Source of the DNA: Escherichia coli | GTDB lineage: Bacteria > Pseudomonadota > Gammaproteobacteria > Enterobacterales > Enterobacteriaceae | Length of the DNA: 64,000 nt | Assembly: GCF_044324785.1 (NCBI RefSeq) | Contig: NZ_CP172127.1 | Reading direction: 5' to 3' (one strand) | Shown here: in pieces, positions 27,761 through 32,597 of the stretch | How the letters are laid out: the number at the start of each line of letters is the position of its first letter | How positions within the stretch are numbered: position 1 is the first letter of the stretch | Translations under genes and position numbers: made by a program | The notes under the pieces: model-generated | Database searches by the model: none | What the model was told of the DNA's origin: nothing | The model's input: only the letters and a program-made list of their open reading frames with translations

Positions 27761-28306
<546 letters not shown>

Positions 28307-28316
28307 TTAATTATTA

Positions 28317-29609
28317 TCACAGATACGGCGACCAGGCAGGGAATTTGACCTGTCCATCAGTTGCCGGAAGACGCGCTTTGAAACGCCCATCTGTAGAAAC
28401 CAAATTCAGCACGGATCCCATCCCCTGAGAAGAGCTGTAGATTACCATAGTGCCGTTAGGTGCCAGACTTGGCGTTTCATCCAGGAACGTGGACGACAGA
28501 ACTTGTACGCCTCCCGTTGCCAGATCTTGTTTGGCAATGTGCTGCTGCCCACCATTGGAGCTGACCATTACCATAAATTTACCGTCGCTGCTGACATCCG
28601 CATCCTGGTTCTGCGAACCTTCCCAGGTAATACGTTGTGGCGCACCGCCGTTGATATTCACTTTATAAACCTGTGGACGACCGGCCTGGTCAGAAGTAAA
28701 TGCCAGGTTCTGGCTGTCCGGGAACCAGGTCGGTTCGGTATTGTTACTGCGACCATCCGTCACCTGGCGGATCTGACCAGAAGCCAAATCCATTACGTAC
28801 AGGTTCAGACTACCGGTTTTCGACAAGGCGAATGCCAGTTTGCTGCCGTCTGGCGAGAATGCAGGTGCACCGTTGTGACGCGGGAATGAAGCCACCTGAC
28901 GTACAGCGCCATTTGCCAGCGTTTGGATGACCAGCGCGGAACGACCGCTTTCGAAGGTCACATAAGCCAGTTTAGAACCGTCTGGTGACCACGCCGGAGA
29001 CATCAGCGGCTGCGGTGAACGGTGAACGACAAACTGGTTGTAACCGTCATAGTCAGATACGCGCAGTTCATACGGGAACTGACCGCCGTTGGTCTGAACA
29101 ACGTAGGCAATACGGGTACGGAACGCACCTTTAATGCCGGTCAGTTTTTCAAACACTTCATCACTGGCGGTATGACCAGCATAACGCAGCCACTGCTTGT
29201 TCACTTTGTACGAGTTCTGAGCAAGTACAGTACCCGGTGCGCCGCCAGTGTCAACAAGTTGATAAGCAACATTGTAAGAACCATCCGGATTCGGAGTGAC
29301 CTGACCGACAACTACAGCGTCAATACCCAGCGCAGACCATGCAGCTGGTTGTACTTCCTGCGCACTACCCGGCTGCTGTGGCAGACGAGCGCGATCTAAC
29401 GGATTAAATTTACCGCTGTTACGCAAGTCAGCAGCAACGATACCGCCAATATCTTCAGGTGCCGCACCAGGACCCGCCCACTGGAAAGGAACAACGCCAA
29501 TAGGACGACCGGAATCTACACCGCTGTCGATCACAATGCGGACTTCAGCATGCAGAACTGATGCCCACAGTATGAGAAAACCAAATGCTACTCGTAATGC
29601 CTGCTTCAT
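28317..29609 (-). CDS. tolB: Tol-Pal system periplasmic beta-propeller protein
   Basis: 430 aa from [21 protein letters not shown]; synteny. Confidence 0.9.
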
Positions 29610-29741
29610 CATATCTCCCTTATCTGGACCGATGGCCCACGATAATTTAGCAGAATGTTAACAAACTAAAATACACAAAACTACCAGAACCCCGTGGCAA
29701 CCGGAGCCTGATGTTGACCGTCGGAACAGTCAGCATCGCGA

Positions 29742-31007
29742 TTACGGTTTGAAGTCCAATGGCGCGTTTTTGAACACTTCATATACTGCCTGGCTTGGTG
29801 GTTTCGGGATCTTCGCAAGTTTAGCTGCTGCCAACGCAGCCTGACAAAGTGCGGGATCGCCACCTTCAGGTTTGATATCCAGTAACATACCATCGGGTGC
29901 CAGTTTTATGCGCAGCGTACAGGTTTTGCCTGCATAGGACGATGCGTCATAGAACTTACTTTCGATAGCAGATTTAATCTGCCCGGCATAGTTATTGATA
30001 TCGGCCCCTGATGCGCCATTGTTTTTAGTATTACCACTCCCGGCTGGCGAAGCATTGTTCCCTTTCGCCCCTCCCCCCGTTTTCGGTGCATTCTTACCAG
30101 AGCTTAGCTCACCGAAAATATCATCTGCCTCTGCGGCCGCTTTTGCTGCAGCGGCTTTTTCAGCTGCTGCTTTTGCAGCTGCCGCTTTTTTGTCTGCGGC
30201 GGCTTTTTCTGCCGCTGCTTTCTTATCAGCTGCTGCCTTTTCAGCAGCCGCTTTTTCTGCTGCTTTTTTGTCGGCTGCAGCTTTCTCTGCTGCCGCTTTC
30301 TTATCAGCTGCAGCCTTTTCAGCAGCCGCTTTCTTCTCAGCTTCTGCCTTGGCTTTTTCAGCAGCTTCAGTTGCCGCTTTCTTTCTTGCTTCAGCTGCAG
30401 CTGCTTCTGCCGCTTCCGCTTTCTTCTTCAGTGCCGCCGCGGCTGCCTCGGCTTTTTTCTGCGCTTCGGCTGCGGCTTTGGCGGCTTCTGCTTCTGCTTT
30501 TTTCTTCGCGTCTGCAGCCGCTTTCTTCGCAGCTTCTTCCGCAGCTTTAGCATCCGCTTCGGCCTTCGCTTTAGCATCTGCCGCCGCTTTCGCTGCCGCC
30601 TCTTCCGCTTGCTTCTGCTTTAACTCGGCCTGTTTTGCGGCTTCTTCAGCCTGCTTTTTCTGCTCCTGAGCCGCTAACCGCTCTTTCTCAAGTTGCTTCA
30701 GGCGTTCCTGTTCAGCCGCTTGTTTCTCACGCAGTTCTTCAGCAGCCTGCTGTTCCTTCATCTTGCGCTGCTCATCAGAACGCTTCGCGCTTGATTCCTG
30801 GCTTTGCATGCGTTTGTACTGCTCAACTACCGCACCTGAATCAACCATGACAGCGTCGATGGACGAACCACCGCCGCCTCCGGCTGAAGCTTCTATATTC
30901 TCATCGAACGAACTCCAGATCAGCGCCGCAAATAAGATGACATGCAGCACTGCTGAAATAATTATCGCCCGCTTGAGCTTGTCGTTTTGTTCGGTTGCCT
31001 TTGACAC
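29742..31007 (-). CDS. tolA: Tol-Pal system protein TolA
   Basis: 421 aa; N-terminal TM anchor, long Ala/Lys/Glu-rich repetitive domain II, C-terminal globular domain. Confidence 0.9.
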   Translation of the reverse strand: MSKATEQNDKLKRAIIISAVLHVILFAALIWSSFDENIEASAGGGGGSSIDAVMVDSGAVVEQYKRMQSQESSAKRSDEQRKMKEQQAAEELREKQAAEQERLKQLEKERLAAQEQKKQAEEAAKQAELKQKQAEEAAAKAAADAKAKAEADAKAAEEAAKKAAADAKKKAEAEAAKAAAEAQKKAEAAAAALKKKAEAAEAAAAEARKKAATEAAEKAKAEAEKKAAAEKAAADKKAAAEKAAADKKAAEKAAAEKAAADKKAAAEKAAADKKAAAAKAAAEKAAAAKAAAEADDIFGELSSGKNAPKTGGGAKGNNASPAGSGNTKNNGASGADINNYAGQIKSAIESKFYDASSYAGKTCTLRIKLAPDGMLLDIKPEGGDPALCQAALAAAKLAKIPKPPSQAVYEVFKNAPLDFKP

Positions 31008-31071
31008 TCTCGGTTTCCAAAAACTGTTCGCCTGTTACCCGCTCTCTTTCAAGCAAGGGAAACGCAGATGT

Positions 31072-31500
31072 TTAGATAGGCTGCGTCATTAAACCAACCG
31101 ATTTCACACCCGCACTATGTAACAAGTTCAGTGCTTTAATTATTTCATCGTAAGGCACATCTTTTGCGCCACCGATCAGAAAGACCGTTTTCGGGTTGGC
31201 CTTGAAACGGCTGGACACTTCCGCCACCACCTGCTCTGGTGGTAAACGCTCCAGGCGATCTTTCTCAACCACCACGGTGTACTGACCAATACCAGACACT
31301 TCAACAATCACTGGCGGATTATCGTTACTGCTCACCGCCTGTGATTCAGTAGCGTCTGGCAGATCGACCTCCACGCTCTGGGTGATGATGGGCGCTGTCG
31401 CCATAAAGATCAGCAACAGCACCAGCAGTACGTCCAGCAACGGTACAATGTTGATTTCGGACTTGAGATCGCGACGACCCCGTCCACGCGCTCTGGCCAT
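31072..31500 (-). CDS. tolR: Tol-Pal system protein TolR
   Basis: 142 aa ExbD/TolR family; synteny. Confidence 0.9.
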   Translation of the reverse strand: MARARGRGRRDLKSEINIVPLLDVLLVLLLIFMATAPIITQSVEVDLPDATESQAVSSNDNPPVIVEVSGIGQYTVVVEKDRLERLPPEQVVAEVSSRFKANPKTVFLIGGAKDVPYDEIIKALNLLHSAGVKSVGLMTQPI

Positions 31501-31503
31501 GGC

Positions 31504-32597
<1,094 letters not shown>

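Follow-up and report, generated by a model that had tools for sequence, protein, structure and literature searches.

We showed that the tandem-repeat tract of tolA in a stretch of Escherichia coli DNA (contig NZ_CP172127.1) almost certainly forms the C-terminal half of domain II of TolA, and that gain and loss of whole units in frame varies the length of the TolA stalk there. The window, which is the whole stretch of 64,000 nucleotides that was analysed, carries the modal 13-unit, K-12-type allele. The variability of the tract, its mechanism and its phenotypic effects were already published in 2012, and nothing in this respect is new here.

The minus-strand ORF that holds the tract is TolA, the Tol-Pal cell envelope integrity protein, and nothing was found against this identification. 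The location of tolA on the minus strand corrects the preliminary description of this DNA. The gene and its neighbours on the same strand are listed below.

27761..28306, minus strand, Pal/OmpA-family ORF (Pfam match).
28317..29612, minus strand, TolB ORF with TolB_N and PD40 (Pfam match).
29742..31007, minus strand, tolA coding sequence with a GTG start, 421 aa (ORF list and Pfam/NCBIfam matches).
31072..31500, minus strand, TolR/ExbD ORF (Pfam match).
31504..32196, minus strand, TolQ/MotA_ExbB ORF (Pfam match).
32193..32597, minus strand, YbgC 4HBT thioesterase ORF (Pfam match).

The TolA translation matched Pfam PF06519 over residues 325-419 (E=2e-38, 130.9 bits with a cut-off of 25, profile positions 1-96 of 96), together with the NCBIfam equivalogs PRK09510 (554 bits vs a cut-off of 213) and TIGR02794 (308 bits vs a cut-off of 59). 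RefSeq annotation at homologous loci agreed with the tolQ/tolR/tolB/pal cluster around tolA. The protein is identical to TolA of K-12 MG1655, and the two genes differ at 10 nucleotides, all of them synonymous and at third codon positions. The window is not K-12, and its tolA DNA is 100% identical to that of strain Ecol_316. In the PDB, full-length E. coli TolA chains (entries 9k49, 9kch, 9quq, 9qvd, 9ddm, 9ddn, 9kpz and 9kq0) aligned over residues 1-421, while the domain III fragments 1tol, 2x9a, 3qdp and 1s62 have their first residue at 292-324. Positions 29000..32000 were also searched against Rfam at a permissive threshold, and no credible RNA element was found; the sole match, to a eukaryotic scaRNA, was rejected as a chance hit (20.8 bits vs a gathering score of 60, E=0.64).

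Domain II of TolA joins the inner-membrane anchor (domain I, on the proton-driven TolQR motor) to domain III. The latter captures TolB-Pal at the outer membrane and binds TolB, colicins and phage g3p. In the window, these parts were located as follows.

30906..30968, minus strand, transmembrane anchor of domain I, about residues 14-34 (translation AIIISAVLHVILFAALIWSSF).
30102..30830, minus strand, Ala/Lys/Glu-rich helical stalk of domain II, residues 60-302 (AlphaFold2 model and composition).
30069..30170, minus strand, last part of domain II, residues 280-313, which binds CpoB/YbgF according to published work (PMC8928145, PMC3477136).
29751..30035, minus strand, globular C-terminal domain III, residues 325-419 (PF06519 and solved structures).

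As read from the translation, domain I holds S18, H22, L29 and S33, which make up the 'SHLS' motor-binding motif (Ser-X3-His-X6-Leu-X3-Ser) as defined in PMC10666116, and the AlphaFold2 (AF2) model places a helix at residues 3-34. Domain II, taken with approximate bounds, consists of 40% A, 19% K and 15% E and was modelled as two helices, at residues 60-200 and 204-302, with pLDDT mostly 80-89. The AF2 model was computed from the single sequence without an alignment (mean pLDDT 70.6, pTM 0.25), and it supports the secondary structure of TolA, namely its helicity, only, and no tertiary arrangement. Domain II is predicted to be a long alpha-helical, periplasm-spanning stalk of the gamma-proteobacterial type. 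The helix was broken in the model at residues 201-203 (window 30399-30407, minus strand), where pLDDT dipped to 57-64, and the break splits domain II into helices of 141 and 99 residues. Published work describes domain II as alpha-helical, possibly a helical hairpin that extends under the proton-motive force (PMC8928145), and shows that full outer-membrane stabilisation requires a structured domain II (PMC10666116). The region had been taken beforehand as tolA domain II and as the normal TolA helical linker, and this assignment was borne out by PF06519, PRK09510, TIGR02794, the neighbouring genes, the identity to K-12 and the AF2 helices.

The preliminary description had placed Ala/Lys/Glu/Asp tandem repeats across 30100-30700, which corresponds to TolA residues 103-303 within domain II. 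The repeat is real, but the array is confined to 30129..30335; the strict array makes up ~207 bp of the 600 bp, about one third of the span, while A, K, E, D and Q make up 93% of the residues over the whole of it. The repeat features are given below.

30129..30335, minus strand, the tandem array itself, residues 225-293, with 13 imperfect units, each 15 or 18 bp long.
30179..30337, minus strand, higher-order 78-nt (5-unit) duplication in the tract (Tandem Repeats Finder).
30336..30383, minus strand, degenerate units immediately preceding unit 1 in the gene, KKAATEAAEKAKAEAE, residues 209-224.
30534..30581, minus strand, minor repeat of two 24-nt units, ADAKAKAE and ADAKAAEE, residues 143-158.

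In order, the 13 units are KKAAAE KAAAD KKAAAE KAAAD KKAAE KAAAE KAAAD KKAAAE KAAAD KKAAAA KAAAE KAAAA KAAAE, with the general formula K1-2 A2-3 followed by E, D or A. The motif KAAAEKAAADK, which had been named as the building block, was indeed present; its four copies sit where units 1-2-3, 3-4-5, 6-7-8 and 8-9-10 join. Tandem Repeats Finder reported periods of 15, 30, 33 and 78 nt at 30130..30350, and the repeat search found a single register with units 15, 15 and 18 nt apart from start to start. As a control, 1000 codon shuffles were made in which the amino-acid and codon composition was kept. In the 13-unit tract, identities at lags of 15, 78 and 111 nt were 0.69-0.76 against a shuffle mean of ~0.49 (z >5), and the observed periodicity was reached by 0 of the 1000 shuffles, so the tract is a true tandem array beyond compositional bias. 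Over 30336..30700, only weak 24- and 42-nt periodicity was detected, which 24 of the 1000 shuffles reached, and Tandem Repeats Finder gave a period of 24 at 30532-30594. The 78-nt period had 2.0 copies with 88% match and a score of 255, and 69 of the 78 positions were the same in its two copies. Within 30100..30700, no exact direct repeat was longer than one of 20 nt at a lag of 78 (30235-30254 and 30313-30332). With head-to-tail units, a unit length that is a multiple of 3 and a single register, the tolA tract is an in-frame intragenic VNTR.

The same tract was described in 2012 by Zhou, Michiels & Aertsen (PMC3477136), who counted 13 imperfect repeats in MG1655, each of 15 or 18 bp. In 234 isolates sized by PCR, they found 8-16 units, and 66% of the isolates had 13 (PMC3477136). 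Spontaneous contractions occurred at 6.9e-5 per cell; they fell to 15% in recA, rose 3.3-fold in uvrD and were MutS-independent (PMC3477136). Deletions sometimes reached the less conserved units upstream of TR1, and units 12 and 13 never took part, possibly as part of the YbgF/CpoB-binding segment (PMC3477136). Copy number affected deoxycholate tolerance, fd phage plating and acid-plus-salt tolerance (PMC3477136).

To compare alleles, tolA was searched by megablast against 5426 complete E. coli genomes, and 40 records were taken at even steps down the similarity ranking. The gene was found in 5425 of the 5426 genomes; one genome had no tolA match, and 2 of the 5429 tolA matches lay on plasmid-classed records. 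Among the 40 sampled alleles, 27 were 1266 bp, 12 had other lengths (1185, 1215, 1221, 1242, 1251, 1275, 1299 in two and 1311 bp in four records) and the remaining one was an annotated pseudogene; these lengths rest on a sample of 40 records, and the genome database that was ranked by similarity has a clinical bias. The differences from 1266 bp were -81, -51, -45, -24, -15, +9, +33 and +45 nt, all multiples of 3. Ten alleles were compared in detail, namely eight variant alleles, MG1655 and the window allele. The eight variants were all intact ORFs of 394-436 aa. When the proteins were aligned, domains I and III were collinear, as was most of domain II. Every indel in these eight alleles fell within the domain II repeats, and seven of the eight changed within or immediately upstream of the 13-unit tract; residues 209-224 were missing in the O157:H7 EDL933, F690 and M7638 alleles. 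The allele of the chicken isolate Z1323CEC0012 lacked one 24-nt unit (an 8-aa gap at residues 143-150). This deletion is a second, minor in-frame polymorphism outside the classical 13-unit tract.

The repeat number was thus compared with other E. coli tolA alleles, as had been proposed, and the variation was confirmed: each of the ten alleles held 10-17 units, counts that hang on the regular-expression definition of a unit and, in alleles without residues 209-224, on a different start, so that the '17 units' of F690 are not directly comparable with the published range of 8-16. The earlier claim that the region is a hotspot of in-frame length variation holds, since 12 of 40 genomes differed by multiples of 3, the indels lay in the domain II repeats and Zhou and colleagues had already demonstrated such change by experiment (PMC3477136). 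The six C-terminal units (KKAAAE KAAAD KKAAAA KAAAE KAAAA KAAAE) were identical in all ten alleles. They occupy window positions 30129-30224 (minus strand, residues 262-293), are as repetitive as the variable units and overlap the published CpoB/YbgF-binding segment at residues 280-313.

The length differences could in principle be artefacts of assembling a repetitive, low-complexity region, and one record points that way. In NIPH17_0036 (NZ_AP024561.1, 601-1742), tolA is annotated as a frameshifted pseudogene, and its scrambled central part resembles long-read noise: about residues 113-340 carry dozens of small indels and 61 mismatches, with both ends clean. We considered this record, the most divergent hit, as a possible natural null or frameshift allele and rejected it as probable noise of an unpolished long-read assembly. 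As a general explanation, however, assembly error is extremely improbable, for the 12 other variant lengths were all multiples of 3, the eight sequences examined encoded intact proteins with whole-unit indels, identical variant lengths recurred across independent genomes and the 234 isolates sized by PCR showed this variation too (PMC3477136). Strain-to-strain differences in tolA length are therefore to be read as real alleles and not as errors, while noisy long-read assemblies can turn the tolA repeat region into a false pseudogene.

The whole-unit alleles would arise when units misalign during homologous recombination or when replication slips between them; either event would add or remove whole units in frame because the units are similar and each is a multiple of 3 nt. 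Such events would give TolA stalks of varying length and leave the protein undestroyed. The lag of 78 nt between the two copies of the 20-nt exact repeat equals five units and spans unit 3, and the predominant event reported under selection is a 5-unit deletion, in experiments with stop codons placed in unit 3 (PMC3477136). We infer that this 20-nt repeat is a preferred recombination substrate for the 5-unit deletion.

Concerning the consequences for the cell, we consider the length variation to be probably essentially neutral. No variant lost the reading frame, and neither the six C-terminal units nor the domains on either side of the stalk varied. TonB's unrelated domain II can replace that of TolA with partial function (PMC10666116), and the length of TolA domain II ranges over 110-335 residues across Proteobacteria (PMC12204202). 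Two points weigh against neutrality: deoxycholate tolerance depends on the unit number in a dose-dependent manner (PMC3477136), and the strong modal allele suggests stabilising selection for ~13 units, not free drift. It is possible, though on the unlikely side, that the variation is adaptive, with tolA as a contingency locus in which opposing selection by bile salts, acid plus osmotic stress and filamentous phage sets the number of units, so that lineages carry different optimal stalk lengths. The deoxycholate plating efficiency of engineered variants with 2-39 units varied over four orders of magnitude, and these variants differed in phage fd and acid-plus-salt phenotypes too (PMC3477136); the contraction frequency is ~7e-5 (PMC3477136), and the 13-unit allele is modal both here (27/40) and in the published survey (66%, PMC3477136). 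Yet the natural alleles are narrow in range (394-436 aa in the sample), phenotypes are modest within the natural range, where 8TR equalled 13TR for SDS, salt and acid plus salt (PMC3477136), and the same length recurs in several independent records, such as the four at 1311 bp.

All of the common length variation fell in the shorter second predicted helix (204-302) of domain II, and the first helix (60-200) was nearly invariant in length, with one rare 8-aa deletion. Since the variation is confined to the second helix, only one arm would be changed if the hairpin model is right. If such a hairpin is the resting state of domain II, a change in copy number would alter that arm alone, and either the hairpin turn would move or an unpaired overhang would adjoin the CpoB-binding end. 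The unit number would then tune stalk extension and force response and not simply reach. This whole reading is speculative and strikes us as improbable.

On the strand opposite the tract, two long ORFs were present.

29995..30669, plus strand, antisense ORF of 224 aa, Ala/Phe/Ser-rich, low complexity (ORF list).
30086..30550, plus strand, antisense ORF of 154 aa, Leu/Pro/Gln-rich, low complexity (ORF list).

Across the repeat, each of the three plus-strand frames had an open stretch of 171-225 codons. The sense codons GCN, AAR and GAR rarely hold TTA, CTA or TCA in any frame, so few antisense stops arise. For comparison, TolA was reshuffled 1000 times, with the protein unchanged and its synonymous codons drawn anew from the pool that the gene itself uses. 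Antisense open frames were equal or longer in 79% of these reshufflings, and the antisense ORFs therefore follow from the amino-acid composition of TolA. Both long plus-strand ORFs are spurious by-products with no sign of coding, as the preliminary description had held.

It is hardly credible that either 29995..30669 or 30086..30550 is a real overlapping gene. Their 224 and 154 codons do exceed the longest open frame of random sequence matched in length and base composition, which averages ~94 codons; by the reshuffled TolA genes above, however, the ORFs are no longer than the amino-acid composition of TolA predicts. Neither ORF had a Pfam or NCBIfam match. Their exact translations were not found among ~15 billion predicted proteins, which is a weak test as the sequences are allele-specific, and RefSeq annotates only tolA at the locus. 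No homologues and no constraint in a frame of their own were seen: among the ten alleles, 53 of the 71 polymorphic sites fell at tolA third codon positions, and with all 10 differences from K-12 synonymous, selection acts on the tolA frame. A promoter scan found no promoter-like site on the plus strand ahead of the antisense ORFs; its single match on that strand, at 30937-30965, lies downstream of them. The plus strand is also studded with terminator-like hairpins.

Nine intrinsic-terminator-like motifs, each a GC-rich hairpin followed by a T run, were counted on the plus strand at window 30131-30492, where shuffles gave 2.9 +/- 1.8. They are a side effect of the tolA codons: read as its reverse complement, (GCN)3-GAR-AAR becomes a palindrome of the GCAGCTGC type with TTTT after it. 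These hairpins might curb any antisense transcription.

For annotation, low-complexity antisense ORFs over the tolA tract are not to be called as genes. Beyond correct annotation the tract matters little, as it is textbook knowledge for E. coli TolA. Current work on force transduction by TolQRA has a mechanistic interest in the stalk, but the window adds nothing new to that question.

Compared with known systems, the closest is TolA of E. coli K-12 (b0739), which is the identical protein with the same 13 imperfect 15/18-bp units (PMC3477136), the same kind of natural variation and equally stable C-terminal units; MG1655 tolA is set apart by its 10 synonymous nucleotide differences only. TonB, the force transducer homologous to TolA, shares its three-domain plan, and domain II of TonB, like that of TolA, is a repetitive periplasm-spanning centre whose length varies between species (PMC10666116, PMC12204202). 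However, the TonB repeats are Glu-Pro and Lys-Pro dipeptides that form a polyproline-II helix, with no sequence similarity to the alpha-helical Ala/Lys/Glu stalk of TolA. The TCT tract of ahpC and the CTGGCG tract of mutL in E. coli, and bacterial contingency loci in general, gain and lose units in frame as tolA does, and in all these coding tandem repeats protein properties change without a frameshift. Unlike these, tolA has long, imperfect units of 15-18 bp; their change is RecA-dependent and MutS-independent (PMC3477136), and it alters the length of a spacer instead of switching a gene on or off.
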